DNA of 64,000 nucleotides, from the NCBI GenBank assembly GCA_037379345.1, contig CM074519.1, positions 14,734,742-14,798,741 of the forward strand, given 5' to 3'. Below are positions 15,222 through 63,420 of this stretch, piece after piece. Within the stretch, counting starts at the first letter, position 1, and every line of letters starts with the position of its first letter. Position numbers and translations under genes: made by a program. Under the pieces are notes generated by a model. That model saw only the letters and a program-made list of their open reading frames with translations, did not search any database and had not been told where the DNA came from. The DNA comes from Perna viridis. Lineage: Eukaryota.

Positions 15222-15625
15222 AACAACATAAAGCTGATAAGGCAGTTTTCTTTTATGTAACACTACCAAGAGACACAACGTACAATAAGAACTCTATCGT
15301 CCGTTTTGATACTGTTATTTACAACATGGGAAAACATTTCAATATCGGAGATAGCGTATTCGTGGCTCCTAAAACCGGTGTGTATCTGTTTTCGTGGACA
15401 ACACAGACATACAGTGGAAAACTGACTGAAACTGAACTACGAGTGGCAAATGTTGTAAAGGGAACTCTCCACATCCGTTTTGCTTCGACACGAGTTGTCG
15501 TCTGTAATGTGAATAAGAACGACCATGTGTGGATTCAGACAAGTCGATCATATTCAGAACATTTCTTAGATGACGCCAATGGCTCACCCAGTTCATTTAT
15601 GGGAGTACTGTTGTTCATAAGATGA
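15222..15625 (+). CDS. C1q-domain-containing protein, gC1q exon
   Basis: Acceptor ttttctctcag at 15220-15221, then an open frame reading VFFYVTL...IVRFDTVIYNMGKHFN...VFVAPKTGVYLFSW...NDHVWI...SSFMGVLL, typical gC1q motifs. Confidence 0.88.
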
Positions 15626-16051: not shown

Positions 16052-16775
16052 GAAAGAGTAATCAAGGGAACCAAGATTTTAGCGGAAATCAAAAGAATGT
16101 AATCCGGGGACAAAGACCACACATGGAAAACAGACGAACACAACAAAGAACATTAAGTAAAATAATACATACAAAGTAACAAAAGTAAATGAGCAACTCG
16201 GACTCCACTAAAAACTGGGAGCATGGACCAGGTGCACCGGTAGGGTAAGCGTCCTCTGCTTTTTCTAGAAACACCCGCCGAGTTGTTCATAAAAAGTCAA
16301 GTCCTGGAGGAAAGAGGAAAGGAAAACTCTGATACGTTGAACAAATCAGTTTTCATGGTGCAGATAGATACACCGTAACGATCCACGAGTTCATGATGAC
16401 GACCATAAAACTTCTGTAGTGATGACTTCAATCTCGTAGCAACATAATCCTGTTCCAGAAGTCTTATTGTAAGAAATCTAGCGCGATACAAGAAGTCTGC
16501 GTAGTTACGGCATGCTCAGGCATAACGTATGGGTTGTGTTATGAAAACTCCATACGCAGGTGTTGAAGGGATGTTACCACAGATGAAAGGAACGTTAACA
16601 ATTTTGAATGAAAAGTCATCACGTTTGTCGTAAAGTTTGGTCAATACCATTGATCTCTAAATGTAGATCAAGATATGAGGCTGACCTCACAGCGTCTGTA
16701 GTATCCTTTATCTCAAGATCTTTGGGATAGATGCGATGTACCAAATCCCCGAATCTATGGACCAATATTTGTTGA
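16052..16775 (-). mobile_element. Truncated Penelope-like retroelement (RT C-terminus plus tail)
   Basis: Minus-strand translation gives IYPKDLEIKDTT..SASYLDL, KLYDKRDDFSF, NIPSTPAYGV and KSSLQKFYGRHHELVDRY, with disruptions. Confidence 0.8.
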
Positions 16776-23612: not shown

Positions 23613-23790
23613 TTATAACATAGTTAAACTTCCATCCAGGGAATTTCGAGGTGTGTTTCTTCCTGGAGATCCACGACTGTCACTCTGTAGGGAACTTTGA
23701 GAAGGAACTTTATCCATGTGGGGCATCTTCTCCCCACGAAGGAACTTCTCTACCTTGTCTACACAAGCATCCTGATAATCATGCACCCAT
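23613..23790 (-). CDS. SARM1: SARM1 alternative last exon B (WVHDYQDACVDKVEKFLRGE...DGSLTML*), 930-aa isoform
   Basis: Translated by hand. Acceptor attttcag|A, phase 2; 59 codons to TAA at 23613-23615; paralogous to exon A. Confidence 0.88.
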
Positions 23791-23879: not shown

Positions 23880-24062
23880 TGCAAAGACCATTAAAAAACT
23901 TTTTGTTTATTTGTACCCATGAAGATAGATGAATACAAAAGAAAAATACAAAATGTTTAAGTAGCACTCCACAAAAGAATGATGCAAAGACCATTAAAAA
24001 ACTTTTTGTTTGTTTGTACCCATGAAGATAGATGAATAAAAAAGAAAAAAACAAAATGTTTA
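23880..24062. repeat. Local direct duplication, ~100-bp period, 2 copies
   Basis: tgcaaagaccattaaaaaactttttgttt...caaaatgttta occurs at ~23880 and ~23983. Confidence 0.85.
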
Positions 24063-24697: not shown

Positions 24698-24781
24698 GGT
24701 ATATGTTTACATGTATGTTCATGCAGGTATATGTTTACATGTATGTTCATGCAGGTATATGTTTGCATGTATCTTCATGCA
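24698..24781. repeat. 28-bp tandem repeat, 3 copies
   Basis: Unit ggtatatgtttacatgtatgttcatgca. Confidence 0.85.
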
Positions 24782-25301: not shown

Positions 25302-26465
25302 ACTGTAAATGACCATAAATCTGTGTAAACCAGACATCTATTATGTGTTAACTCAACAATCTCCTACATCAGTCCAGTTTACACAAATTTTACTATAAAT
25401 AACCATAAACCTGTGTAAACCAGACATCTAACATGTGTTAACCAAACAATCTCCTACATCAGTCCACCAAACACAGATTTTACTGTAAATAACCTTAAAC
25501 CTGTGTAAACCAGGCATCTAACATGTTAACTCAACAATCTCCTACATCAGTCCAGTTTACACAAATTTTACTATAAATAACCATAAACCTGTGTAAACCA
25601 GACATCTAACATGTGTTAACCAAACAATCTCCTACATCAGTCCACCAAACACAGATTTTACTGTAAATAACCTTAAACCTGTGTAAACCAGGCATCTAAC
25701 ATGTTAACCCAACAATCTCCTACATCAGTCCACCTTACACAGATTTTACTGTAATAACTATACACCTGTGTAAACTAGACATCTAACTTGTGTTTATCCA
25801 ACAATCTCCTACATCAGTCCACCTAACACAGCTTTTACTGTAAATAACCATAAACCTGTGTAAACCAGACATCTAACATGTTAACCCAACAATCTCCTAC
25901 ATCAGTCCACCTTACACAGATGTTACTGTTAATAACCTTAAATCTGTGTAAACTAGACAACTAACATGTGTTAACCCAACAATCTCCAACATCAGTCCAC
26001 CTTACACAGATTTTACTGTAAATGACTATAAATCTGTGTAAACCAGACATCGAACGTGTTAACCAAACAATTTTCTACATCAGTCCAGTTTACACAAATT
26101 TTACTATAAATAACCATAAACCTGTGTAAACCAGACATCTAACATGTGTTAACCAAACAATCTTCTACATCAGTCCAGTTTACACAAATTTTACTGGAAA
26201 AGCTATACACCTGTGTAAACTAGACATCTAACTTGTGTTTAACCAACAATCTCCTACATCAGTCCACCTTACACAGATTATACTGTAAATAACCTTAAAC
26301 CTGTGTAAACCAGACATCTAACGTGTTAATCCAACAATCTCCTACATCAGTCCACCTTACACAGATTTTACTGTAAATAACCTTAAGCCTGTGTAAACTA
26401 GACATCTAACGTGTAAATCCAACAATCTCCTACATCAGTCCAGTTTACACAGATTTTACTGTAAT
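25302..26465. repeat. Satellite-like tandem array, 88-90 bp unit, about 13 copies
   Basis: Unit tactgtaaataaccataaacctgtgtaaaccagacatctaac...aatctcctacatcagtccaccttacacagattt. Confidence 0.95.
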
Positions 26466-29015: not shown

Positions 29016-29271
29016 CATACTCTGAGGCCAGAATTTCCATATGGATTCCAAAAAAAAAAATAGTTACAAATTTTTTGCAGTCGTATAAAAATCAACAGAC
29101 CAGAACAAAATTTGAACCTGATTTGTAACTTTCCATAGTAATATAATGTACCAAATATGAAATGAATATCTGCAAGCATGACATAAAAAAAGTGTGGAAA
29201 ACTGAGTTATTGTATGAATTTCCTAAGTCCAAGGGCCATAACTCAGCAAAAAAACAAGGGACTGGAACAAA

Positions 29272-29800
29272 AATGGACATAAAAGCAAGGCTAAATAAAG
29301 CAGGCTCAGCATTTGAACAACTTCAGCACATCTGGTGGTCCAACAACTACCGTCTGAAGACCAACCTCCAATTTTACAATTGTAATGTTAAATAAGTCCT
29401 CCTGTATGGGTCTGAATGCAAGCCATGCAAGCATCATGAGATTAATAGAGGCATTTCACAACAACTGCCTTAGAAAAATAAACCACATCTTCTGGCTAAA
29501 TAAGATCAGCAACAAAGATCTGCACAAGACATGTCAAAAAAGAGCATTGCATTGCAATTAGAAATCAATCAAAGAAAAATGAGATGGCTTGGACATGTTA
29601 TGAGAATGCCCCAAGGGCACCACCTGGAAAGAGGAAGAGAGGTAGACATCATACCACCTGGCAAAAAAACTATAACATATGAAAAAGAGGAAATGGGCTA
29701 CTCATGGGGACAAGCACAGCAGTTTGTGGCAAAAGACAGAGGTAGATGGCAATTACTTGTTGAAACCAATTGTGACATAGAAGATAAATAAGTAAGTATA
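29272..29800 (+). mobile_element. RTE-clade LINE 3' fragment
   Basis: DIKARLNKAGSAF, VLLYGSE, MRWLGHVMRM and VAKDRGRWQLLV, followed by a (TAAG)n tail; stops and frameshifts present. Confidence 0.85.
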
Positions 29801-32800
29801 TGAAATTTCATCTCTATGTCCACACATAATTTTTTTGCTAAACAGTCTGTTTCTAGCTATTATACTTAGTTGTTACATAAACAATATCAATGGATCACAA
29901 CAAAATTCTAAATCATTAAGGAAAAACCATAATTAATGCACAAGGACAAATATACAATATTATGCTATAATTTCTTGAGAAAATAAAATTCTTCTGAATT
30001 TCCACATAAATAAAATGTTTTGCGAGGCGCAGCTTGATACAAACACATATATCAAAATGTAAACAGCTGCGGCAAGAATGGATTTATGTTAATACATCAT
30101 GAATTTACATTTTTGTAAGCAGCAAACAAAGAATTGACAGCAATTAAGAATAAGACAACAATTAAAGTGGCCTCTTCTTGGCTACTTAATTCCTGAATGG
30201 TTCTAGTAACAATGCCTGAAATTCAATCCCGGCCTTATGTAAGTGGCATGGGACATTGTGGTACAATTTCAAAGGGATCACGTTTGTTTATCCAACATAT
30301 TATCCAGACATCAGAAACATGCTTGTTTCTCGCCTCTTATTATGTTACAAAATTAGTGAACATATTGTTTTTACTTCTGTTTTTTTTTTAATTCTTTCTT
30401 CTAACCTCCCTCTTGTCCACGAACTTCTCTGAATAGACTGAATGGATTTATACCAAACAAAAATAGACCCCCTAGGCCCAATAAACAGATGTGCATAAAG
30501 TTTTGAAATTTTATAACATGGCCGCTATCTCAAATTAGCCATCATGTAAACTTTTAAAAAATTGTCAAAAAATCATAAAAAAATAGTAGAAAGTTCATAC
30601 TTGCATCACCACAATCTGATCAGCCACTTTGAAGTTTTAAAAATGGTTGCCATTTCAAGATGGCTACCAGTCAAAAGTATAAAAAAATTAAATAAATTCT
30701 TTGATGCGTACAAAGTGATTCTAAATGCTCCTGTGACAATGGGGAACCTTGGGGAACACCCTGTTATGCTAAGTGTAACAATTATATCTAGTGCCTGACT
30801 GGTTCAAGTCACAAAGCGAAAAATCAATTGCAGCCTTCCTTTAGTGGTATGGCTCCTTTTGGTACAAAATCAAAGAGATCAAATCACTTGTACTAAACTC
30901 ACTCTTCTGAAATCATAAAAAAAACATATTTCTGGCCCTTTTATGACCCCTTTTCACAAAACAGCTCAAGGAACAATCCCAAAATCAATCAATCAACTAG
31001 CCTTCCTTTTGTGATATGCAATCTTGTGGTACAATTTCAAAAATATTAATAAAATTTCCATTCACTAACAGTCAAGTAACTGTCTTTACATCATAAATAT
31101 GATTGTTTCTAGTCCCATTTTGCCCCCTCATTCCTATATTTATTCAAGTTACAATTCCCAAAACCAACCACAGCCTTAATCCTTTAAATGTACCACACCT
31201 TGTTGTTTAACTTAAAGAGATCCGTTCACTTTTAGTCAAGTTATTGTCTGGACAATTCATTAAAATGCTTGTTTCTGGTTCTATTTTGATCCCTAACAAG
31301 GACATTGACCCTAACAGCATGACACCGTAATACTAAAGCCAACTTTTTTTGGTCATATAACAAATTATATTTGTCTATAAATCTGAACCAGGAAAGTTAT
31401 TTCCAGTATAATGCATTTTCATATGTATGGAAATGCCTAATTAACTATCAATTAAACGTTATAAATACGATATAAACTGTACAAGCTCTATAACTTTTAA
31501 ATAAAAAAATACTGATATTCCCAATTCAGAGTGACTCCAAATTTGCAGTAGTTGTCTTTCAATGGAACAAACATTTTGAACTGAATAAATAGGAAAATAC
31601 ACTTCTGCTTTCCTTAAAGTATACTTTAATGACCAATGTACAATGATAACAAAAATAAAGTAAAATAAATTTAAGCTGGGGCTGAAAAATATAACAATAT
31701 AAAAGAATATTACGGCCAACAACATGCAAAGAATATATTAAGCTACCACAAAACAGGAGTCTTTACATGATATCTGCAATAAAGAAAGACAACTCTGCAA
31801 AAGGGAGACAAATTCTTCAGACTAAAGGCAGGGAATGCATCAGAACACAAGAATGAAAGACAACCATTTCAATATATTGCATTGCACACACCCTATCTAT
31901 TAAGTATTATTACAAAAATTATATTTATAAACACATATATCAACAACCAATAAAGTTAATCCAAAATAAAAGAAACCAATAATAAATATAATGTACATAT
32001 GTAATAAAAAAAAAACCTTATAGTGACTTGACCTGATTCTGTGTAATGGAATTCCAATTGGTCTTTGGTAATGGAGAGGCGGTGAACATGTGATTGAATG
32101 TGTACAAATGTCAAATTTAACATCTAAGCAGAAATTAAACTTCAGCAAGCTCTTTCTAAAATTAAAAAAAAATTGTATAATTGTAAATCTATGAAAAAAA
32201 AAAATATTCTAAAATCATTTTTCAAAACAATTCAATTTTTCAACTGCATTTCCTTTTCTAAAGTGCTTAGAGGTAAAAAAATGAGGTGATATATAAAGAA
32301 TAATAGCTACTTTTGATTTAAATACTGACAATATCATGAAGAATATCTCAAAATAAATGAAATATTCTACATTATAGGGTCAAAATCAGAAGTAGCTATT
32401 ATTCTGTTTCTTGGTAATCCAATTATTGCTTTTTTAATCATTTAATTATTGGCTACCTTTTACATGCAAAAATCTAGTAGTGCAACAACACTGTTGGTGT
32501 AGACAACATTTTCATTCAAAACTCTTAAGAAGATCTGATGACATTACCACATCCCCCAAAGTGACAAATATTTTTGAATATTCTGTCATATATGAGAGAC
32601 AGAGAAATATCTGTCAACAAGACCAAAGGAAAAATGTTCAGATTACCAATAAATACTCCTGTAATGTTTAAGTGAACATCTGCAAAGAAATATCTTGAAG
32701 GTATAAAAATGTTCCATATGGGTCCTTTCTTTCAAATAGAAAAAATACATATCTGATCAATGGACTTCTCTAAAAATCTAAATATTATATAATACTTTAT

Positions 32801-33030
32801 ACATATGACATACTGGTAATTATCCCTTTACCACAAGTCAACAGTCAATTCCTAGTATCTCTTTCCACTCCTTTCTCTCTACTCATCACTACAGTTGTAT
32901 TACTATATTCCAGTACAGTTACAATCTCCTTTTATTCCATTCCAACATTACATGATTCTCTTTCAGTTCTCTTCTTCACCCACTTATTTAAACTCTTTGG
33001 TGAACCTAGCTCATCCCCCAAAAAAATATG

Positions 33031-33271
33031 TCAATATGACTCCACAATATTTTCCCATATTGAGTTTAAAAGGCCTGTTGATTTGTCTTTAAAGCTTTTC
33101 ATGCTGGACATATCACTATCACTGTCACTGGTGCTCTCCTGTCCAGAATATTCTAGAGAGTTTTCCTGTATAGGCGAGCATTTATTGTCGAATGCCTGAT
33201 GTGCACGTTTCCCAACTTTTAGAAAGTTCTCAAGCTTTTGCATGCAGGCATCCTGATAGTCATGAACCCAT
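33031..33271 (-). CDS. SARM1: SARM1 alternative last exon A (WVHDYQDACMQKLENFLKVG...SIWENIVESY*), 951-aa isoform
   Basis: Acceptor cctgtag|A, phase 2, matching the donor at 35442. Encodes the TIR EE loop and last helix; stop at 33031-33033. Minus-strand AATAAA at 32931-32936. Confidence 0.85.
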
Positions 33272-35441: not shown

Positions 35442-35563
35442 CTTACACCATTAAAGTAAACAACCTGTTGCATATCTTCTGGTAAACTCTCAGGTGTTGG
35501 CCAGTCAAAACTGTCAAGTACTGGGATAATATTACAATCACTGTCTAATGCTGTAACAACCTC
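35442..35563 (-). CDS. SARM1: SARM1 exon: TIR, starting with the catalytic Glu ([41 protein letters not shown])
   Basis: Translated by hand. Acceptor ctatag|GAG and donor AG|GTAAGA; 122 nt, phase 0/2. DWVHK-E matches human E642. Confidence 0.93.
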
Positions 35564-38784: not shown

Positions 38785-38974
38785 CTTATGAACCCAATCC
38801 TGAAGATCTGTATCACCACAACATCTATCAAGAGCATTTGGAGTCAGCACCAACAGGAAGTGCCGAGACAGTTTTATATTAAGTAATAAATTCTCATCAA
38901 ATTTTCCTGCCCTTAGTCTGTCAATATCCAAAAATACTGTAAATCCTCTTAACTGCAGATGTACCTTCAGTAAA
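38785..38974 (-). CDS. SARM1: SARM1 exon: TIR BB loop ([26 protein letters not shown]...DWVHK)
   Basis: Acceptor tttccag|T and donor AAG|GTAAGA; 190 nt, phase 2/0. Confidence 0.95.
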
Positions 38975-39006
38975 CTGGAAAGGAACAAAGATCATGGTTT
39001 ATACTT

Positions 39007-39392
39007 GTATTGATAGATATACCATCTCACCAAATATTAAGTATTGATGGAAATACCATCTCCCCAAGTATTGATAGAGATTCCATCTCACCAAGTAATG
39101 ATTGAGATACCTTCTCACCAAGAAATGATAGAAATACCACACCACCAAGTATTGATAGAGATACCATCTCCCCATGTAATGATAGAGATACCATCTCCCC
39201 ATGTAATGATAGAGATACCATCTCACCAAGTAGTGATAGAGATACCATCACACCAAGTATTGATAGAGATACCATCTCACCAAGTATTGATAGAGATAAC
39301 ATCTCCCCATGTAATGACAGAGATGCCATCTCCCCAAGAATTGACAGAGATACCATCTCCCCAAGTATTGATAGCGATACCATCTGACCAAG
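39007..39392. repeat. 27-bp minisatellite, about 14 copies
   Basis: Unit gtattgatagagataccatctcaccaa; produces the 9-aa periodic ORFs on both strands. Confidence 0.95.
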
Positions 39393-39588
39393 CACTGAAC
39401 CATCTTTATTTATAAATTAATGTATTCATTGTTACTGTAGCGTTGTCATTTTAGACTCTTTAAGACATATGACAGTTATTTTTTTTTAAATTACAATTTT
39501 TTTGCATTATAGCATCACAAAAAATTCTGAACAAAAGCACTGCATGGAATGGGACCAAGAGCATGATGATTTTCTATAAGCACCTGCT

Positions 39589-39795
39589 TAGCCAAGAGCA
39601 CCTAATTTGCCAAGAGTACCTGATTTCCTAAGATTACCATGATATGCCAAGAGTACCTGATTTCCTAAGATTACCATGATATGCCAAGAGTACCTGATTT
39701 CCTAAGATTACCATGATATGCCAAGAGTACCTGATTTCCTAAGATTACCATGATATGCCAAGAGTACCTGATTTGCCAAGAAAACCATGATTTGC
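39589..39795. repeat. 37-bp tandem repeat, about 5 copies
   Basis: Unit gccaagagtacctgatttcctaagattaccatgatat. Confidence 0.92.
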
Positions 39796-42337
39796 TAACA
39801 GAACCTGACATCAATCTTTCTGACCAAGTCAACAGCATCAAAGCAATTCAAATAATAACAAAGCTCAAAGAAATCTGAATTCTTTAAATTTGTAAATATT
39901 GTGCTTTTCAAGTGATTAGAGTTAACATTGAAAGAATAACAACACAGGTAGATTAGTTCATTCTTCTGTGACATTACCTATCTAAATTGTAAGTTTGTTG
40001 AAAAATCTCTTTTTTATTTGTATTAAATGCATTTTGAAAAAAAGAAACAAACAACAAAACAAAATTTAAATCAAAACTTATTTAATAAGAAAGCAAACCA
40101 AACATATCAATTAAAAACACAATTAACCCAAAATATCAAATCATGTAAACAAATAAAGCACACACAAAAAAAACAACAAAACCTGAGAAAAAATGGGACT
40201 TAAACATCAGCTTCAACAAAAAAAGAATAATATATAGTAAAATAGAAGCTACAATGTACTACCATATGTTATATTTTAAAAATTCAGAAAGTATCACTGA
40301 AAATTAGAAGATAATAATAGAATGCTTTGTAAGTGTAAGCTTGACATGACCACAGAGGTCTATAATTAGTAATAAAAATTTAATAATCTCTTATAAAATG
40401 TGCTAACTAAAAAAAATAATACTATAATCCTACGATATGCACACTGGTAGGTCATAATAAAATTGAAAAAGTTTAAGCCTCCTTCAAACGAAGAAGTGAA
40501 ACTAACACTGAGTATTTTTTTTGGCTTTTATATGTTAAATCAAGCTGACATTAAAACATGGTAGCAAGACAATGCAAGTAAATAGTAATACCATTCATAG
40601 AAACAAAACAGAGTCAATTCCCAAAGTGACCAATACAACTCATGTTAGGGTACCAGTCATTTCTAACATTGAATTTCTTATAAAATACACATGTAATCTA
40701 ATCTGTTATTCTGACAGTGTCCTCTGCATCAAATGCTTGGATGACTACAGAATTAAGATTGTTGAAAGAAGACTATACCAAAAGCGGTTGAAAGAAAAGA
40801 TTGATAAAAGAGATAGAAAGAGGCTTCAAACACTGCTGCATGTGGACCAGCTACAAATTCCTGCTGAAATAATAGTTATTCAAGAGCAGTCTGGCAACAA
40901 TGCACCAGTTGTCACAAGAAGCATCAAGTGTCAAAGAAGCTATAATTTTTCACATTAATCATGAGAAATACTATAATCCCTTTTGTCACAGGAGCCCCTG
41001 TATCATTTGTTAGTACATGTAGTGATTTCTTTAATAAATCAAATGTGTATGTAAGACACAAAGGATGCCCCTGCTCACTAGATTTGCCAAATTAAGAACA
41101 TGTTTATTTTGTAAGAAGACATGGTTTGCAGATTCAGAAAGGTATGTACTGTTGGTTGATGCAGTAAATATTTGGTATGTTCGGAGAAGCACTGCAAAAA
41201 TACTTGGGATGAGAAAAAGAGGACTGATGGACGGACTGGTTGACACATAAAAAATGTTAATACCTCCATTTACAAATTCCTAACTTTGTTGCTTGGAGTA
41301 TACTTCTGACAAAAATTACAAAGTCCAACTATCACCCAGTTACATAATATTCCACAAAAATCAAGATCCTATGACCTTGAACACCATCATTATGTGTAGA
41401 AACACCCAGGAGCCCCCACGTCATTTGTTAGTGTTAATTTTTTTTTAGTAAATCAAATGTGTCTGTAAAACACTGATGATGCCCCCGCTCTCTAGATCTG
41501 CCAAATTAGGAACATGTTTATTTTTGTATGAAGACATGGTTTGCAGATTCAGAAATCCTTCCATGACTTGAGATACTCATGACCTGTGAGTTCAGCTCAA
41601 TCCTTCCAAGACTGGCAATGACAAATTGTTCCAGTACCGCAATTCAAAAAATCTGGGGATCAATTTTGGGATCAGAAATTCCTAAATATATGCATATCTA
41701 CTTATTTTATCCTGGCCATATAGTGTCATAAGATTATGTTTGGTAGCATAATATTTCATGAAAATCAAGATCCTATGACCTTGCATACCATCATTATGTG
41801 TAGAAACATCCAGCAAAATGTATTTTAGATGTAGCTCAAAAACTACAGGAGGAGATAGCCAAACAAGCCATATAACCCTATTTCTGATGAAAATAACTAA
41901 GTCTAACTTTCACCAGTTTCTGTAATATATCATGAAAATCAAAATCCTTTGACCCTGCACACTTTCATCATGTGTAGAAATATTCTGTAAAATATCTTAT
42001 ATGTAGTTCAAAAACTGTACGAGGAGATAGCCGTACAAGCCATGATCATGTGTAATCCGGATGGACAGACAGAAACATGTAAATTAATGTGCCCCAGACT
42101 GTTTGTCGCGGGGCCTTAAAAAAATTTGACAGTGTGTAAGAGTTGAAAAAAAAGTGCAAGTATTTTTTATACATGAGACATAAATTGAGATTGGAAACAA
42201 AACAATTATCGGTATATCAAGAATGGGCTTTCACGTAAAAATACCAATCAAATAAAAGTCTTCTCATGTTTTGGGGACGTATTCTATACAATGGAATGGG
42301 AACTCCAACACCAGTCAGGGTTAACTTTAGCAGTAAA

Positions 42338-43200: not shown

Positions 43201-43890
43201 AATCTGTCTTAACAGCTTTAGGACATTTTTGACTGGTTAAGACAGGTGTTGGGTTTACCAAGGTTTAAAATAAAGGGACTATAAAAAGTGCCTGGTTTAC
43301 AATTTGTCCCGGTTCATTTCAAGCAGGTTTCACTAAAATAGTTAAGGAATGTAACTTTCTCTATTTTTAACATATTGATTTTTTAATTTCATTTTGCCTT
43401 CCATTATTGTATGTATCAATGCACTTGGCTTTTTGGAACTGCAGAATGAGCTCAGAAGAAAGCAATCACATTCTACATAGTTTTATCTAGTTCCTGATTC
43501 AATGCATTAAGCAATTATGTCATTCACTTTCTCGATTAAGGAGTCAAATTTTTATGATCTTAGAACGTATCAAAAAATAAAAATATGAAATCAGTCAATC
43601 AAAAAAGCATTGTTGCAGAGTTTACTAGTATTCCAAATAAATGTTCATATAGACTGTATATTGTCATACAGTTAAATCCATGTAAAAAAAAAAAAATATT
43701 AAAAAAAAAAACTAGGCCTTTTTACCTTTTACCTCTTGAATTCGTGAATAACAAGCCAATATAAAATATTAATGAGCACTTTTTAAGCATATTCTAGCAA
43801 TTAAAAATGAGTAGCTTTCTACAATGACATCACCATGAGTCAAAATAAGTATTCAGAATCTGTCTATGCATAGGGTAAAGTGAGTTGTAC

Positions 43891-44035
43891 CTGGCAAGCT
43901 GTGATCCTGTAGACCTTCTGTAACTTATAAAAACATCCACTGATTTAGGCATAGTAGTCATGCTAGAAACATCTACACTCTTCTGTCTCTGAAGGCTACT
44001 GAAACTTCCATACTTTGGTAAAGCACAATATAAAT
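43891..44035 (-). CDS. SARM1: SARM1 exon: SAM-TIR linker and TIR box 1 (DLYCALPKYG...KSVDVFISYRRSTGSQLAS)
   Basis: Not in the ORF track; translated by hand. Acceptor tttttcag|AT and donor AG|GTACAA; 145 nt, phase 1/2; DVFISYRR signature. Confidence 0.92.
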
Positions 44036-45775
44036 CTGAAAAACAAATCTTTAGTTTTTGTTTGCTAATTTCTTTTCTCGTGAAGTTTTGAGCATCTTAT
44101 TGTACATAACATATCTTGATATTGAATGAAAAATTACCCATGAGGTATTGGCAATAAAAGCCTTTACTTAAGAACCTTCCTGTAAATAATAAACTAGAAA
44201 TACTGAGAGCAAGCTTACAAAACAGAATACTCCCACTTAAAGTGAACTTAAATCATATTAAGTTAAATACAGAAACCACCGCTCACCAGCTCGCCAAATA
44301 CGAGTAGATGTGTAATTTGGCGAGTTCTCATTAGCTTACACTTGTCAATTTGGCAACCGTCATTTGATTGGCGAGCTCCAAGGAAAATTAACCAGCCAAC
44401 AGGTTATATAGTAAAACATCCCTTAACTTCATAAATTAAAAATATGTTCCCTACATTTTAAGAAGTTTGGCTTGAATATTTCAAGTGAATTTTGGCATGA
44501 TATGTACAATTTTATTGTCTTGTAATTCATTGTTTATGATATGCCATTTTGATTTTCGGAAAACGGGATGTGCCAAAACCTATGCGACGGTCCCAATCTC
44601 GTATTAGTATTTAAACGAAATTATCTGGGTAATTTAAGATATGTTGCCTTGCAAATGAGCAAGAAGCAAATGATAAACATTTTCTTGTTTCATGATGAAT
44701 CTGTTGAAATACAATTTTATTTTAAAATAGTTCAGAAATGGAGTACTTATTTTGTTACTGTAAAAATGTGAAGAGCAGAGAAATTTTTTGAATAAATGGA
44801 AAATAGAAAGAAAGTGGATAATCAAATTTCTATTTGGCTTGCAAGATCAACATTCCACTAGCCAGAATGGTAAGTTTAGAAAAAAAATGATTTCCCACAC
44901 CGTAGATACAATGTAAGTTCCTATCGTATTTATTTTTTTTAAGGCACATCTACATGTAATGCCTCAACTGTTTAAAAATATCATAAAAATACACTGCATG
45001 GTTTACAAGGAGTTGAAAGATGAGTGGAAAGACAAAGTGACAAAAGGGTGAATACAGGTAATGTGGAGTTGAGCTTATGAGATAAACGAAAGGACAAACA
45101 GACAAACAGCGTAATTACAGGTAAGGAGGAGTTGCGATTACAAGACATGTTGACAGATGAACATGGGGTTAAAAAGATAAACATGGTGGTTCTGATAACA
45201 GTGTATGCAAATTTGGTTTAGAGGTTACCAGACCAAATCTAATATTTTGAACTTTTCTCCTATTTGGGCAACTCAAAAAAAAAACCAATATTTTTTACAG
45301 GACTGACAGCATTTTCACCAAAAATACCTGTCGATCCTGTGGTATTTTGTTTTCACTTTGATATACTCCAAAACTTTGTTTGAGGGGGATGTAATAATTA
45401 CAATAATATTAAAGTGTTCTGGATACAAAAAAAAACATTTACCATATAACAAATTAAGGAAAAATTGACATACATGTTTTTTAATATCTGTGTATTGTAC
45501 TGTGTAAGGTCTCATTCTAATTTGTGAATAATTAGTGAGCACAAACATTAGACAAATCAAAATAGATAAACATGAAAAAATACCATACTCTGTACATCCC
45601 CTAAAAGGTAGTTACTTTATTGACTAAGCTGACTATCTTTTTTCAAGTCAAGATAATTTGCATTTTGGTACTTAACATTTGAATGATTCTAGGAAATTTT
45701 TCCCAATATTTCCCTTTTTAAGCCTCCTGCCAATAACCATATAAAGCAGGAGAGAGTACATGTCCTCTAGATATT

Positions 45776-46089
45776 AATGTTCTAAGTCCCTGTAAATACA
45801 GAGCAAGTTCCCTCATCTTACCATCAATATGTTCTAAGTCCCTGTAAATATAGAGCTAGTTCCCTCATCTTACCATCAATATGTTCTAAGTCCCTGTAAA
45901 TACAGAGCTAGTTCCCTCATCTTACCATCAATATGTTCTTAGTCCCTGTAAATACAGAGCTAGTTCCCTCATCTTACCATCAATATGTTCTAAGTCCCTG
46001 TAAATACAGAGCTCATATTACCATCAATATGTTCTTAGTCCCTGTAAATACAGAGCTAGTTCCCTCATCTTACCATCAATATGTTCTAG
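45776..46089. repeat. 52-bp tandem repeat (about 6 copies) spanning the SARM1 SAM2 exon donor
   Basis: Unit ttaccatcaatatgttctaagtccctgtaaatacagagctagttccctcatc; one unit is 44 bp. Confidence 0.95.
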
Positions 46090-46306
46090 TATAAGCCTCC
46101 TGTGTATAGGGTTTGAGACTCCACATTCTTTCAGCTCCTCATGACTGGTTGTGGACAACAATTCCTTATTCATGCCATTCTTCAGCATACAGTATGTGTA
46201 CTGAGACAGGTCAGGTAATATCTTCATCATCCAACTGTCAATCTGTGAGTGATCTACAGAGGAGTAGTCAGCAGTCACTTTTAAACCTTTCAATTCTCTC
46301 AAGAAT
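46074..46306 (-). CDS. SARM1: SARM1 exon: SAM1 end and SAM2 (FLRELKGLKVTADYSSVD...SQYTYCML...CGVSNPIHRRLIL)
   Basis: Acceptor ttgtag|A and donor G|GTAAGA; 233 nt, phase 2/1; conserved RFLREL, ADYS, QYTY and CGVxNxIHR motifs. Confidence 0.93.
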
Positions 46307-47561
46307 CTACAATATATAGATGGAGAAGTGGTTCCCATTGGAAATCTGTAATTACTGGTAAAAATAAAAAGGATTTTGGTCTGCGAGTTGTGAAATGGAT
46401 ATAACCAGGAAGTTATTCCCCAACTTTGAAGCCAACATCAATTGAATTGGTTCAATAATCCAGAACTATACACAATGAATTAAATGTTGTTCACAAATTC
46501 ATAGCACTCTGCACTTAGTGATAATGTTAAACTGGTCAAGAAATTTATTAGGCTAGTTGCTAATTATGACAGGAGATTCTGTCTTTTTCTTTCCACTAAT
46601 AATAACAATAATAAAACTGTAAATTCACCCTGGAAACAATTGCAATTAGCCCTGGTACATGTACATGTATATGCCACAATCTTGCATAGATCTGACTTTA
46701 AAAAATCAATCGTGCAGTTATCAAAAAAATATATATTTATCAATTTCGAAGGTGTATTTAGAAATAATTTGTGGCAAAAAGCATAATTTCTTATGTCCAT
46801 TATTACTAGTAATCTAAAAATAAAACAATTATATGTCATTTAGTTTTTGATGGTAATTTTATAACATTTAGTATAATTCTCTCCCGCCATGGCCTGGTGT
46901 ATATCATACTTCTGACATGTCAAAGACCTGTGTGTGACCAGGCCTGGCCATACCAGCAGCTCAAGTAAAACTGACATTTTTCCATTTTTGAAACCATAAA
47001 TATGATGACTGTAACTTGTATTGTGAAACACCAGGTAATGACTTAACATTAAAAAAATACAAACATATAATTATTTACATGTAACAGTGATTAAATTATA
47101 AAGATACCTTAAAAAAAGCATTTCAAAAAACATCAATATTTCACTTCACCATATGATCTACTGGGACTACAATTCTGACTATCTTTGACAAGATCAGCAT
47201 TTTGTAATGTTACAATATGTGTATGGAAAAAGTAACATGGTTATTTTTATGCATGATTGATGATTGCTATGCAAAGTTAAATCAATTATGTACTTATGAT
47301 AACATATACTGAGGAAAAAATTGACAAATTCAACAAAGAAAGTCATACTAAATGTTTTTCAAGCTTATCCATGATACAGTAAAAGGTGCAAAACCTGATT
47401 TTTTTCATGAATAAAAACACTTTTAATTTGTGATAAAATTTGTTACATAGTTTTTGAGTTTCAGATTACACAAAGTAGGTTTCCCCTGATTGTAACTGAC
47501 GAAAACAAATGAGTTGCTTTCACTATTAGTGACCCAAGCAATGAAAAATGAAGTAACCAAC

Positions 47562-47686
47562 CTTTTCCTGGCCAGTTTACAGGTCATATTAATACTATTC
47601 TGCAGTTCATCTTCAGTAAGTAATAACAAAATGTCACCATCCACTCGACAACTTGTAAATGTATCCACATAATCTTTAAATCCAAC
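47562..47686 (-). CDS. SARM1: SARM1 exon: SAM1 (VGFKDYVDTFTSCRVDGDILLLLTEDELQNSINMTCKLARKR)
   Basis: Acceptor ctttag|GTT and donor AG|GTTGGT; 125 nt, phase 0/2; VDGDxLL SAM motif. Confidence 0.93.
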
Positions 47687-48734
47687 CTAAAGTCAACAAG
47701 TTATTTTGTTTAAAAATTAATAAGTCTTTAAGGCATACAAAATGAATCATAACTTTTTGGTCATTTTTTCATTTCAATATAAGAATTTATAAAATATAAT
47801 AAAGCATTTTGAAGAAAAATTAGTTGGACAAATCCTCAAAATGCATTTTAATTACTGATGCATATTTCACAGAGAAGATGCATAAACATTACCAACATAA
47901 AGTAATGTGTATGTACAACTACTTGTACATGACATCAAAGCAGTTGTGTACATCCCTATCATTAGTGACACAGGTGTACAGGTATCAGTATGCTGAGATG
48001 TGTTTCACTTGTTTGTTCTTACAATCATTCCATCTAAACTTAAACATTCACAAAATGCTAAACCATGAAACATACAAAATCATGTACTTTTAGTTCTCAG
48101 TAAAAAATGTAGTCCTCACATCTATATACAATGTACATGTAACATCATAGTCCATACATTGAGTAATATATGCCATAGTATGGGACATATCACTCAATGT
48201 ATGGACTATGATGTTACATGTACATTGTATGGCATAGGGTTTCCTTATTTCTATTAATTCTGGTAACATGTGAGTATAGATCATTTGGCTTTTACAGTAA
48301 CTTGCACAATGTATGACAATTTTTTTATTCATTAATCAAAAGTTGTTTGAAAATTTTGTGTCAATTACTAATAAATTATTTTTTAAGATATGTATATTTA
48401 ACAGATCAATCAGCCTAAAGTGCATCTTGTATAACATATAATGTAGATAGATGATACAAGAATCTACATCACCTACAAAAATACATGTACATGTATGATA
48501 TGAAAATAATGATACAAATGTAAATTGCAGATGTTTTTTTTTTTTAAACAATATGACCATGCAAGTCTCAATAATATTGAAGATGGTCTATACATGTATT
48601 TTGTATATTTTCAGCATTACATCTGCAGCATGAGACTAAAATAAATCAAGTAGCAAGAACAAAGGAAGGTATTTCAAGTTCCCAATAACTTTTGTTTGGT
48701 TAGAATGATAATCTACATGTAAGTGAACTGATAC

Positions 48735-48911
48735 CTGTTTGACCCAGTGAGCAACATCTTCAATATTCCAAACTGGTACTTGAGGTGTTAGTTTATGAGG
48801 TACATCTTCACCAATGATTTTCAGAGCCTGTGCAGCCAGTTTAGAGGCTGTGGCATTAGGACTACTTGCCACATTCTTTAAAGGTTCTACTGCACCAATG
48901 TCATAAAATGT
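48735..48911 (-). CDS. SARM1: SARM1 exon: end of ARM, start of SAM1 ([12 protein letters not shown]...[15 protein letters not shown])
   Basis: Acceptor ttttcag|ACA and donor CAG|GTATCA; 177 nt, phase 0/0; SARM1-like [11 protein letters not shown] motif. Confidence 0.93.
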
Positions 48912-49483: not shown

Positions 49484-51106
49484 CCCCACTCTCCCTTGTT
49501 CTGCTTTAATGCCAGCTTCCATTGCGAAATGGAATGCTGCAAGGGCTTGGGCTTCTTCCCTTCTACTGGACAGTAAGGGAATAAGATGTTCCAAATAGGC
49601 ACTGTCTCGACCTTGGCGATGGGTAAGATCATTTTTGGCAAATGTTGAAGGCTTTGTACTGTTAATGAAAGGCATGACTAACTCTAATGTTCCAGATTTG
49701 ATCACAGCAGCTTCAAGCTCTTTATTAGCAACAAGAACACAGATGGCTAAGCAGGCGTAGTACCGAATATTATCATCCTCCATGAAAGCTAAAGGAAATA
49801 ACCATTCAGGGACATTACGTGAAGCCATCTCCTCCTGGTTTTCAGCACCCCCAAATAATGACAAGTTTGAAATGGCTTTGGCACAGCGGCGTAATACTCC
49901 AAGATCAGAACTTCGACACCAGTGCAAAATAATGTCAAGTCCACCTAGAGAAACAATTTTAGATGAAGCTTCCCCTGAAACTTTAAACAAACCTTCAAGA
50001 ATCCCTGTTGTAATTTTAGCAAATTCATGGTTATCCTTAAGGCCCACAGTCATATTAATGACAGTTTCTAGACCATTTTCAAGCACATATTTCCTATTTT
50101 CTGTGGACAAAATTTGTTCAAGAAGACCAGCCGATGCCTTCAAAAGATCTTTATTTGATGAGGAACAGTTCTCTATCACCATGTCAAGAATACCCTCCTC
50201 TCGTATGACATCACAAAGACCGTAAGAAAGATCACGACCAAAAACTTCCATCTTCCAAGCATGTTCAATTACATGGAGAATAGCATTTAGATGTCGTATC
50301 TCCTCACTTAAATTCCCATGGGCAGTTTTTATGGCTTCAATGTGTTTTTCCAAATTTCTTGAGGACTTTTGATAGCTGATTTTGAGATTTGTCAGGCATT
50401 TCCATGAAATATGTGAGTCACTGGAATATGAAGGAGGCAGTTCAAGTGGATATTTCAAACAAAGAGCTGGAACTGCTTCTTCTTTTTCCATTATCTCTTC
50501 TATAATGACATCCTGAGAAAAGGAATCTTGGGATTTATTTGACATTAAAGACTGATGAGAGGAACATTCAGAACTTCGAAATTTTACTTCTTTTGCTTTC
50601 GCAAAGGATGATGACTCATGTTGTTCTGAACTTTGGGCAGAAATTGAGCCTGCTTTACCAGTACTTTCCATTTGCTTATATGCCGCCAATGACGACCTTT
50701 GGCCTTTCTGTAAAGAACTTTTGCTTGCCTCTGCATGGTAAACTTTGCCATTGTCTTTGCTACTCATTTTTGCCATCATTGCAGCCTGTTCACTTTCTTC
50801 AGATTGTGACAAGTCAAAATAAACTTTTGAACTTTCTGAAATTTTTTTGTTTCCTAGAATACCTGCATTTTGCTCCAAGTTTTCAGCAGAGCTTGCAGCT
50901 TTGTATGAAACTGACTTGTTAGCCTTTTGTGATTTGGCTTCTTTAAAAAGTGATGTTTCAGATACAGACTTGTCAATCAACTTGTCAGGGTCAAACTTGT
51001 TGACTGATCTGTTACCAGTCCTTTCAAGCAGGGCACCAGTTCTACTGAACATAGAGTCAAACTCATCATCACCATCAATCTTTGTCAATCTGCCTTTCTT
51101 ATCCAT
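49484..51106 (-). CDS. SARM1: SARM1 first coding exon: Ser/Lys/Glu-rich N-terminal extension plus ARM domain (541 aa)
   Basis: The ORF contains SARM1 ARM motifs (LLEQILSTENR, GGLDIILHWCR, PEWLFPLAF, IRYYACLAICVL, SGTLELVMPF, LAAFHFAMEAGIK). Acceptor ttctcag is at 51111-51112, so the exon starts at 51110. Donor GGG|GTAAGC follows 49484, phase 0. Confidence 0.95.
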
Positions 51107-56040: not shown

Positions 56041-56311
56041 GACTGGAACGGACTCTGTGACTTGACTTTTTATGAGCAACTCGGCGGGTGTTTCTAGAAA
56101 AGCAGAGGACGCTTACCCTACCGGTGCACCTGGTCCATGCTCCCAGTTGTTAGTGGAGTCCGAGTTGCTCATTTACTTTTGTTACTTTGTATGTATGATT
56201 TTAGTTACTTTATGTTCTTTGTTGTGTATGTCTGTTTTCCACGTCTGGTCTTTGTCCCTGGATTACATTCTTTTGATTACCGTTATAACCTTGGTTCCCT
56301 TGATTACTCTC
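56041..56311 (+). mobile_element. Solo tail of the Penelope-like element
   Basis: Near-identical to the reverse complement of 16055-16300; shares the KAEDAYPTGAPGPCSQ pseudo-ORF. Confidence 0.85.
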
Positions 56312-57536
56312 TCCCACAAATAGATGTAGCACATTTCGTGAGTTGTCGGGCTGCATATTTGATGGTAAAAGCAAGCCCCGTGTGATCAAACGAGAGTGAA
56401 CGTGTTATATAAGCAATTTCCATAATATGGGGTAAACATTGCTTAAATCAGCGAGCACCGTTAGTTTTACCATACGTGCACCGTCTGTGTGAGACCCGTA
56501 AAAAATAATAAAGGACTTCACAAAAGAGGGGGATCGACCCGGATGAAAATTTTTGCTTCGCAAGTGCAATATTTTTATTTTTATTTAAGCTACAAGCAAA
56601 ATCAATATTTCTATTTGAAAATCTGTCTTGTTAATGTTTTTTTTTTCAATAAATGAATAACTTGAATTTTTTTTCACCAAAAATTCCAAGCCCATACTCC
56701 TTTCCCCTGGCTCTCTAAATGGTCGATAACTTTATAGCACTTGGTAATACTTTACATTTTTTGTCCCTTAAGGGCATCTGTAGTAATATCCATTTCAGTT
56801 TTGGTCGGTCTGATCAATCTGTACAGATACCGGAAATATTACGTACAGTTCTTCACGGATGGTGGGAAAATTTCACACATATCATTTGACGTAAACAAAA
56901 CTCGGACGACAGCTGCAAATTCCAAACAAGAAAATGATTGCCTTTCCTATCTTAGAAAAGCTATTCTTCGATTTTGATAATATAATCGAAGTTATATTTT
57001 TTTCCGAGGCGGGTTAGGTTCTTGACAACAGCAACAGCGGGGACATACGCACGTTCATCCACGTGTTTCACGAACTTAAAAAAAATCATATTTACTTCTT
57101 TTAATTAGTAAAAAAAGTAAAGAAAGACTCAGAAATGATGAATTTAATTTTACTGAAACGTAATCTTTACCAACGTATTTTTATTTTTGTGGTTTAATGA
57201 AGCGATAAATTTTCTCCGTAAGGACAGTCACTTTTTGTTACTTCCGGGACATGACTTTTTTTCGTTAGTATATTGGAGAACCTTAAAGGAAATTTTTATA
57301 GTACATGTAATAACCGTAGAGCCCACACCGCTTCGCGGTGCTCGCTACTAATTTCACAAACGAATGGAATTGGCGGTGACTGCCTTAGTTACTAATAATG
57401 ATCAGCGGAAAATCAGGTTAGGGTGCAATTATAATTAAATGCCGAACACAATTGACTCAGCTAAGTCCCCAAATTATATTTGTTTTTGTTTATAAGGAAG
57501 ATTTTGAATTAAAAAAGTTCTTCAAAATTTTAGAAA

Positions 57537-61266: not shown

Positions 61267-61659
61267 TGTATTAGAACGGGAAGTTTACATTAAAAGATAA
61301 AATGATCGGTTAGCATTGAATTTATGTAATATTATCCAGTTTCCGATTTAAACACTGGCGTTCGTTACAATTGATTATATAAAGGTAATAAATATTATCA
61401 GTACACCGATATCTATAATATATAGCCATTCGGGTCATAATGGTTACGAAATAATACGCAATAATCTGAAGGGAACCAAGATTTTTGTAGAAGTCCCCCG
61501 ATTTTAGAGCATATCGCATTTGTACCATTACTGATATTTAAAGTATGCCAAAATCAGTGACAGTGAATATTTGACGATTAGCGATTCGAAGACTTCAGTC
61601 TTTGATTTTTTATTTACTGTTCTAAACCCCCATTTACATGCATGATTATACAAATATAA

Positions 61660-63420
61660 ATTGTTATTTTCGTTAATGTGGTCCTCGAAAGTTACTTGGT
61701 CGTCCACCACAACTCCAATACTTTTTTCTGTCGTTGTTGATTGTAATTTGGTGTTACAGAGACTATAATTGGCTGTTAGTGTTGAGAGTTTGCTGTCTAT
61801 TGAAACTTGGCACTTATCCGGATGGAATCTGAGTAGCCAATTATCAGACCATTTTTTTCTAGGTGCATATCGTTTTGGAGTATGGCATTATCATTTGGCG
61901 TTTTCATGTTTCTGAAGACTTTCGTGTCATTTGCGAACATGTAGCAGTCTGAAGCTAGTGCGTCTAGAAATTCGATGTAAATGACGAATAATATCGGGAC
62001 TAATATGCTATCTTTTGGGATGCTGCTTGTAACTGGTGTCCAATTGGAAAACTATTCATGACTCTTGTTTGCTGTTTACGATTACTTCGGAATGATTTTG
62101 TCCATCGTATAATATAATTTGAAATACATGTACCATAATAACAAGCGTCGGTGTGGTACTTTATCAAACGCTTTCACGAAGTTTAAATACAGGCATTCAG
62201 TGGTTTCCACCTCTGTCTAATACCTGGGTCCAATGCTCTAACACGTATAAAAGTTGTAGTGACGTTGACCGTCCTGAAATAAAACCGAACTGTTTATTAG
62301 AGAAAAAGGGGATTACTTCCATGTTATATGGTCTCTGACATAAGTTTAACGCTATGTACATAATATACAGGTGAGGCTCACTGGCCTGTTGTTCGAAGCA
62401 CTTTTTCTACTACCTACTTAGAATATAGCTGTCATACAACCCCAACCCTTCCATTCATCTGGCACTGTACATAAATTAATAGTTAAATGTTCTCTCAGTT
62501 CATCGCAAAAATGATGAAGGAGTCTCGGTTGAAGATTATATAGGCCCAGAGATGTGCTTATGTTCATGTCTTGTAGCCTTTATTCGCTCCTTTCATTGTT
62601 AAATGTCGAGGACAGGCATACATGTTTGTACTGCATTCTATAATTGGTCTTGATAACAATGGATAATCGTCATCGTTTTCCACAGTGAACACATTGAGGA
62701 AAATTTTCGACAGTGTATCGACCTTTAATTTCTTTGTCGTTGCTTGTTTATCTCTCTGTGTTATTTTCCTGATTCATCACAAGATCTATCTTAGTTTTTG
62801 AGTTTACGTAACACCAGAATTTGTTCGGATTTTTTAAAATATCTGTTGCTATTTCCTTTCTTTATTTTTGGCAGCATTTCTTATCAGGTTTTTAATTTGG
62901 TTTCTAGATTTACAGAATTATCGATATCTATCTGTATCTCATGTTTCTGAATATCTTGCCGAACATCGATTTTTTTACTTATAGTTTTCAGTGTCACATG
63001 TTTTCATTTTGTCATTTCGCTTTGGAACATATTTGTCCTAAATGTGTATTTTTTTTAAATAAAAACCATTGATTATATCTTTGCCTTCTAACTCGTCAGC
63101 CCAGTTGATTTCATGCCTGGAAAGTCAGCTTTTGTCGTAGTAATATTTTAATCTTTCGGTGTTTTCTTGCTGAATGTAACAATTTAAGTTTAAGGTTATT
63201 AATGAGTTACCATTCTTGTCTAGGGGGGTACAGTATTTAATGTCTGAATCCATACCCTCTTCGTTTGATAAAACTAGGTCTAGGATATGCGGCTCTTGAT
63301 CAATTCTAGCCCTCATCGGTTTCGTAATGTGCTGAAATGGGTAACAACAACAACCAAGTATTCCAATATATCCTCTCGAAATTTAAATCACCGATGACTA
63401 ATACGTGGCTATAGTTAGCT
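61660..63420 (-). mobile_element. Decayed CR1/L2-clade LINE ORF2 (endonuclease plus RT)
   Basis: Minus-strand fragments ILDLVLSNEEGM, PNKFWCYVNSKTK, RPVSLTCII, QFGFISGRSTSLQLL, KAFDKVPHRRL, MFANDTK and WLLRFHPDKC, with many stops. Confidence 0.88.

Follow-up and report, generated by a model that had tools for sequence, protein, structure and literature searches.

A variable, donor-spanning minisatellite in the SARM1 gene of the mussel Perna viridis is most likely neutral

Donor-spanning minisatellites in other genes

Minisatellites that carry copies of an exon-intron boundary have been described in several genes. In intron 7 of human F7, a 37-bp VNTR presents the splicing machinery with 5-9 identical donors, and only the most upstream of them is used (Borensztajn et al. 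2006, PMC1557585). [quoted passage not shown] In ABCA7, the donor of the next copy is used at 2 ± 1%, a value unaffected by VNTR size, and exon 19 skipping does vary with VNTR size (PMC5954066, main text). When the next ABCA7 copy is used, a premature stop results and the transcript becomes a target of NMD (PMC5954066, PMC13747324). Amphioxus carries the so-called mirages, which differ in length between haplotypes and leave splicing undisturbed (PMC3087553, PMC3902484). On a wider scale, a human catalogue holds 9537 splicing-associated tandem repeats (PMC10078293).

The array described here lies in a stretch of 64,000 nucleotides from Perna viridis (the window), and it belongs to this known group of exon-boundary minisatellites, represented by F7, CBS, ABCA7, and the amphioxus mirages, to which it adds a member in a bivalve and in SARM1. 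As in F7, the first unit straddles the exon-intron boundary, identical donors stand in a row, the array is polymorphic, and the most upstream donor is, at low depth, the one seen in use. The mussel unit differs in being 52 bp long with ~15 exon nucleotides and in belonging to a mollusc; in addition, every mussel pseudo-donor leads to a stop, whereas the fifth and sixth of F7 do not. The likeness to the 25-bp VNTR in ABCA7 intron 18 consists of a unit that carries a donor, a next copy that leads to a premature stop, and a cryptic acceptor in the preceding exon (52 nt lost in ABCA7, 53 nt in the mussel). However, the units of ABCA7 number from 12 to more than 200 and have been measured to affect expression and the skipping of exon 19, whereas the mussel has ~4-6 donors.

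The arrays of CBS intron 13, 6-16 intron 2, LMNB2, and PDGF intron 4 are likewise donor-spanning minisatellites, and CBS is the nearest precedent for the idea that copy number tunes splicing. CBS and 6-16 differ from the mussel in that no pseudo-site use is seen in the latter, at low depth, and in the number of copies (4-6 versus 15-25). As for the mirages, found in Adh3, troponin C, the BflGb6 and BflGb9 globins, and PGBD5, they share with the mussel array a tandem exon-intron boundary, a marine invertebrate host, and normal splicing, but they occur in another phylum and in other genes, and excerpts of the papers treat them as possibly cephalochordate-typical (PMC3087553, PMC3902484). A literature search returned no title dealing with the array or with the way mussel SARM1 is spliced, which does not prove that it is absent from print.

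The SARM1 gene and its array

The gene model, assembled from tblastn and checks of the exon borders, has seven exons and two alternative last exons (Table 1), giving products of 951 and 930 aa. The attribution to SARM1, put forward in the original prediction from the sequence alone, is upheld by tblastn, by Pfam, and by the 82.5% identity of the 951-aa model to P0001 (Mytilus) along its whole length. The ARM region, two SAM domains, and C-terminal TIR all lie in one frame of this model, the same ARM-SAM-SAM-TIR layout being found in the SARM1/TIR-1 proteins of Mytilus and oysters (P0001, P0003, P0006, P0009). Pfam places SAM on exons 3 and 4 (SAM_2 with E 3.9e-10 on exon 4) and TIR_2 on exon 6, with E 6e-4, below the curated cut-off for this fragment; the Arm match was found on P0001. 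Compared with 11 protein candidates, the SAM2 exon gave nine matches, at 96% for Mytilus SARM1/TIR-1 and 67-68% for the oyster-type proteins, and in metagenome contigs it gave 246 pattern matches with no confirmed relative.

Exons 8a and 8b share a TIR C-terminal motif at their start (13 invariant columns), and the choice between them swaps the last TIR helix and the tail. Both types of last exon are found in Mytilus proteins (P0001, P0003) and in oyster-type proteins (P0009, P0006); therefore, the duplication of the last exon may date far back in bivalves. The Mytilus protein models P0002 and P0003 are without the TIR core exon and run into the intron after exon 5, which is probably an annotation or assembly gap and not a real isoform.

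Table 1. Positions of the SARM1 exons, the array, and the related splice features, in window coordinates.
Feature	Positions	Strand	Evidence
SARM1 exon 1, coding part, N-terminus and ARM region	49484..51106	-	tblastn, 81% to P0001; boundary check
SARM1 exon 2	48735..48911	-	tblastn, border check
SARM1 exon 3 (SAM1)	47562..47686	-	tblastn, joints, Pfam
SARM1 exon 4, 233 nt, end of SAM1 and SAM2 domain	46074..46306	-	tblastn, Pfam, joints 46306/47562 and 44035/46074
Cryptic acceptor inside exon 4, AG at 46255-46254, exon resumes at 46253	46253..46267	-	X14 contig, depth 5.12
52-bp minisatellite, 6.2 units (one of 44 bp)	45777..46088	-	TRF, unit split, collapsed-unit contigs
Authentic donor ATG/GTAAGA, exon end 46074	46068..46076	-	only joint to 44035 in 4/4 runs; gives 951 aa
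TGA ending the 735-aa TIR-less frame, met on donor 1 read-through	46024..46026	-	
Pseudo-donor 2, ATG/GTAATA, +5 G lost, in the 44-bp unit, exon end 46022	46016..46024	-	joint: none seen
Pseudo-donors 3-6, exon ends 45978, 45926, 45874, 45822	45816..45980	-	identical to authentic donor from -14 to +8; joint: none seen
Five candidate 20-nt micro-exons (TTTACAG acceptor-like site to next pseudo-donor)	45822..46041	-	use: none seen
3' array border, short intron copy of exon-end letters TAGAACAT	45777..45790	-	exon end and border compared side by side
SARM1 exon 5, linker and TIR start, acceptor partner of the donor	43891..44035	-	tblastn, joints, translation
SARM1 exon 6 (TIR core)	38785..38974	-	tblastn, border check, Pfam TIR_2
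SARM1 exon 7 (TIR)	35442..35563	-	tblastn, border check
Alternative last exon 8a, 951-aa model	33034..33271	-	tblastn, border check, motif alignment
Alternative last exon 8b, 930-aa model	23616..23790	-	tblastn, border check, motif alignment

The array itself (TRF: period 52, 6.2 copies, 90% matches, score 533) is built from a unit that combines the final ~15 nt of the SAM2 exon with the initial ~37 nt of the intron. Its units measure 52/44/52/52/52/52 bp and are followed by a partial seventh; unit 1 (46087-46036) straddles the authentic donor at 46074/46073, a boundary that the RNA joints confirm. On the minus strand, GATG/GTAA repeats at the six exon ends listed in Table 1, and five further GT donors thus stand head-to-tail inside the intron, four of them matching the authentic donor exactly. 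The exception is the second donor, which reads GTAATA instead of the GTAAGA present at the other five of the six: its 44-bp unit has an 8-nt deletion plus a G>T at donor position +5. TTTACAG is present once per unit, in 6/6 units. The core of this had been anticipated (a 52-bp unit made of the exon end and the donor, six donor copies, five of them with identical GTAAGA, and an acceptor-like tttacag in each unit), and the minus-strand motif listing, TRF, and the unit split agree with it. The recurrence of the donor is not a matter of chance because, of ten GGTAAG in 27.5 kb of gene strand, five fall within the 310 bp of the array. The array is a single locus, with one match in a search of its own genome that ignores very common words.

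Tandem repetition is frequent in this DNA: the window holds 15 tandem arrays with a period of at least 10, covering 6.6% of it, and six of these are within the SARM1 gene span. The intron preceding the TIR exon has two minisatellites, at 39007-39392 (27 bp x14) and 39579-39808 (37 bp x5.4), the former of which contains GATG-GTAT donor-like words and stops 32 nt before the TIR exon acceptor at 38975. Between the two last exons there are arrays at 23904-24062, 24698-24781, and 25302-26464 (periods of 50, 28, and 178/89 bp, respectively), and the one at 23904-24062 ends ~114 nt ahead of the 8b acceptor.

Variation between samples

Sequencing runs offer a view of the array in other samples. Eight of the 24 listed runs were examined (X4, X5, X8, X9, X10, X11, X14, X21), X9, X10, X11, and X14 among them being chosen for holding more than the exon's share of the query words. 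Of the other 16, six share 0.39 of the words, which is the exon's share of the query, and this was not counted as evidence. Three of the runs examined are DNA-like (X4, X5, X8), and five, from four data sets, are RNA-like (X9, X10, X11, X14, X21); X10 and X11, with their near-identical contigs, are probably one data set. X21 alone is recorded as RNA, and none of the holders in the run listing has such a record. The comparison covered 43700-47800 for X9, X10, X11, and X21, and 45300-46600 for X4, X5, and X8.

Is the array real, and is it the same everywhere? It is real, and it varies in unit make-up between samples. Collapsed tandem-unit contigs, coming from several studies, are present in seven of the eight runs (X4, X5, X8, X9, X10, X11, X14), which largely disposes of the doubt, raised with the original prediction, that the array could be an artefact. 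All three DNA-like runs carry the tandem unit, with three different dominant unit layouts, and in none of the three is there a joint that skips the array, as an array-free allele would produce. X5 has a closed cycle of a CTA-type 52-mer at depth 296 versus ~101 for the flanks (2.9x), and its upstream contig stops where a pure CTA allele predicts. In X8, the CTT-type unit has a depth of 23.6 (3.2x) and the core word of 32 (4.4x), with flanks at ~7.3. X4 has a closed 96-bp (52+44) cycle at depth 23 versus flanks of 9.5 and 5.9 (2.4-3.9x).

The allele of the window is a mixture of unit types in which CTT is the commonest join; therefore, X5 and X4 differ from it, since neither layout would result from following the commonest path of that allele, and X8 might be a simplified version. 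The 44-bp unit is absent from the contigs of X5 and X8, so that the weakening of the second donor is not constant. The array is probably variable in length as well: the depth ratios suggest ~4 donors in X5, ~4 in X8, and 5 or more in X4 against six in the window, with the proviso that contig depth is not a true copy number and averages the alleles.

Splicing at the SAM2 exon

Which of the six donors is used? The joint from 46074 to 44035 is the sole joint into that acceptor, at low depth, in all four runs that were compared over it (X21, X9, X10, X11), and the choice of 46074 as the productive donor is supported. In X21, for which raw reads were used (19% of the run read), three reads with two starts cross this joint; in the contigs its depth is 14.3 (X9), 10.2 (X11), and 10.7 (X10). 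A joint from any downstream donor (46022 to 45822) to 44035 was found in none of these four runs, with the caveat that contigs drop rare variants, and the expectation that the downstream donors are used found no support at this low depth. The raw junction reads of X21 (0/3 from a pseudo-donor) give an upper bound on pseudo-donor use of 63% only. X10/X11 contain a single unbroken 811-nt contig spanning exons 3-4-5; had a pseudo-donor been in frequent use, this contig would be expected to break at the junction words that the donors share. X14, whose stretch is without the 44035 acceptor, shows loose ends neither at 46074 nor at the pseudo-donors and is uninformative on donor choice. NMD would hide the products of a leak at steady state.

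Some sequence of the array does occur in the RNA-like runs, in the form of collapsed-unit contigs of 82 nt with a depth of 3.85 (X10, X11), 4.81 (X9), and 2.9 (X14). Each corresponds to ~1-4 reads. In addition, one X9 contig extends 12 nt beyond the donor into the intron. These reads could be pre-mRNA, DNA, retention, or pseudo-donor use; low-depth intronic contigs are found elsewhere in SARM1 (e.g., 43735-43885 at depth 3), hence pre-mRNA or DNA can account for them. In X21, by contrast, the depth is 0 across 45755-46028. The intron after the array also has interspersed repeats at 44270-44930, where X9, X10, X11, and X21 present many diverged reads or contigs (depth to ~300) and loose ends.

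Exon 4 contains a cryptic acceptor of its own. An X14 contig joins exon 3 to 46253 at a depth of 5.12, beside the normal joint (5.5), and its loose end matches exon 3. The site is 53 nt downstream of the normal acceptor and its use removes 53 nt; it has its own pyrimidine tract, and its AG spans the codons for Val-Asp, which correspond to Cys-Asp in the Mytilus proteins. By translation, this joint leads to a frameshifted 646-aa product without SAM2 and TIR, whose stop precedes the next junction by 164 nt. The joint is seen in one of the five RNA-like runs and is not listed in X21, X9, X10, or X11. Accordingly, a TIR-less SARM1 transcript may exist through this cryptic acceptor, apparently independently of the array.

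Predicted products

Translation assigns the 951-aa protein to donor 46074 and one and the same 735-aa TIR-less product to each of the five downstream donors. Plain intron retention gives this product too, because the 52-nt period shifts the frame onto the TGA at 46026-46024, which read-through of donor 1 meets ahead of donor 2. The earlier statement that read-through hits this TGA, and that every alternative donor ends the protein after SAM2, is therefore exact. A single-copy intron, when read through, would also be TIR-less (753 aa); hence, truncation is not special to the array. The units also frame five 20-nt AG..GT cassettes, of which cassettes 2-5 would have upstream introns of 76-232 nt; none of the 31 combinations gives the full-length protein.

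Two further roles for the pseudo-donors were considered and rejected. The downstream copies do not serve as back-up donors, for none restores the frame. Nor is the +5 G>T at 46022 taken as a change by which selection disabled the nearest pseudo-donor: the 44-bp unit is not seen in X5 and X8, and the variant was singled out in hindsight from a small number.

What would a TIR-less protein do? Mammalian SARM1 without TIR reportedly acts as a dominant negative. According to excerpts of one study, some artificial SARM1 mutants act in a dominant-negative manner, TIR-less splice or frameshift alleles are predicted full losses of function, and the natural truncated human protein G624* is hardly detectable (PMC9381744). 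The available portions of a review (PMC12106052) make no mention of a TIR-less dominant-negative SARM1.

Origin of the array and weighing of the explanations

The preferred reading, with a probability of roughly 83%, is that the copies in the array are silent or near-silent decoys: the first donor is used, the array has no regulatory role, and the minisatellite is most likely neutral. A 52-bp segment covering the end of the SAM2 exon and its donor would have been tandemly amplified into a variable minisatellite. Short direct matches at the ends of an array are the usual seed for duplication by slippage or unequal crossover. Judging from the letters at the two borders, TAGAACAT is the likely seed of the first duplication, an event of slippage or unequal crossover between the exon end and an 8-nt match lying 52 bp further along, in the intron; the same events would then have added and removed copies. 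The upstream donor would win because it is met first and closes a defined exon, as shown for human F7, a scanning rule established in mammalian cells, not in molluscs. In a rare leak, the stop would precede several later junctions and NMD would remove the transcript, for which reason the array would be tolerated rather than selected.

The opposite view is that the array works as a natural dial on mussel SARM1, with more or stronger donors diverting a real share of the transcripts (through the pseudo-donors, retention, or 46253) to TIR-less forms that are hidden by NMD or act as dominant negatives. Taken in this broad sense, the dial is very unlikely. Its most direct version, in which the downstream donors compete and additional copies shift SARM1 to NMD or to a dominant-negative ARM-SAM-SAM protein, so that alleles differ in output, is decidedly unlikely. 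It can draw on the four copies that match the authentic donor letter for letter between -14 and +8, on the variation between samples, on the few array-bearing reads in RNA-like runs, and on CBS, with its two used pseudo-sites and its VNTR listed as linked to lower activity (excerpts of PMC1557585, PMC1395315). Against it are the absence of downstream-donor joints in 4/4 runs and the fact that all five donors converge on one product, whose stop before donor 2 would mark it for NMD. The precedents point the same way, since ABCA7 second-donor use is independent of VNTR length (PMC5954066), the downstream copies of F7 do not compete (PMC1557585), and G624* is hardly detectable (PMC9381744). The tuning of productive versus NMD or dominant-negative transcripts by copy number, as originally proposed, thus finds no support, and F7 and ABCA7 argue against it. 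An indirect effect, by which the array weakens the definition of exon 4 and causes more retention or more use of the 46253 acceptor, with less productive SARM1, is judged very unlikely. The X14 contig, with its nearly even depths of 5.12 and 5.5, and the X9 contig that continues past the donor speak for it, as does ABCA7, where the exon before the VNTR has a cryptic acceptor and exon skipping rises with VNTR length (PMC5954066). However, the cryptic joint occurs in a single one of the five RNA-like runs (four data sets), its acceptor with its own pyrimidine tract needs no help from the array, intronic contigs of low depth are found at 43735-43885 as well, and the cryptic-acceptor isoform of ABCA7 is constant across VNTR sizes (PMC5954066).

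Could the units be 20-nt micro-exons, each made of a TTTACAG acceptor and a pseudo-donor, and a step toward new exons or introns? The five AG-20 nt-GT cassettes, with upstream introns of 76-232 nt for cassettes 2-5, and the proposal that mirage repeats are a route to new introns (excerpts of PMC3087553) make the idea conceivable, but no such joint is present in X9, X10, X11, or X21, and with 0/31 combinations keeping the frame to the TIR, micro-exon use would be selected against; this reading is most improbable. Even less credit is due to an assembly artefact: the exact six-unit layout of the window is indeed seen in none of the eight runs examined, but the units carry distinct substitutions and a deletion, the tandem unit recurs in 7/8 runs from several studies, and no DNA-like run (0/3) has a joint that skips the array. 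The reading of the copies as decoys is the one that remains preferred.

Significance of the array

For the present, the array is of small consequence, as a further exon-boundary minisatellite. It can serve as a length marker and as a natural test of whether "first donor wins" applies to molluscs, and it is liable to mislead gene prediction and read mapping at the SAM2 exon junction. If it were true that the number of repeats sets the share of TIR-less SARM1, the array would offer, unusually outside humans, a splice-site VNTR that tunes an enzyme of immunity and axon death, albeit by a mechanism that still has human precedent (CBS, ABCA7), and the dial would imply that the NADase signalling of SARM1 shows inherited differences in a bivalve.

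Other features of the window

The rest of the window holds a few other elements. An open frame of 139 codons at 15206-15622 on the plus strand resembles, we presume, a C1q-type globular domain. The segments at 29147-29788 (plus strand) and 61531-62406 (minus strand) are presumably broken reverse-transcriptase-like fragments of non-LTR retroelements. A plus-strand frame of 141 codons at 32774-33196 is merely the antisense of exon 8a. Finally, 16092-16515 and 56066-56382, which have similar translated stretches on opposite strands, are two copies of one dispersed repeat.
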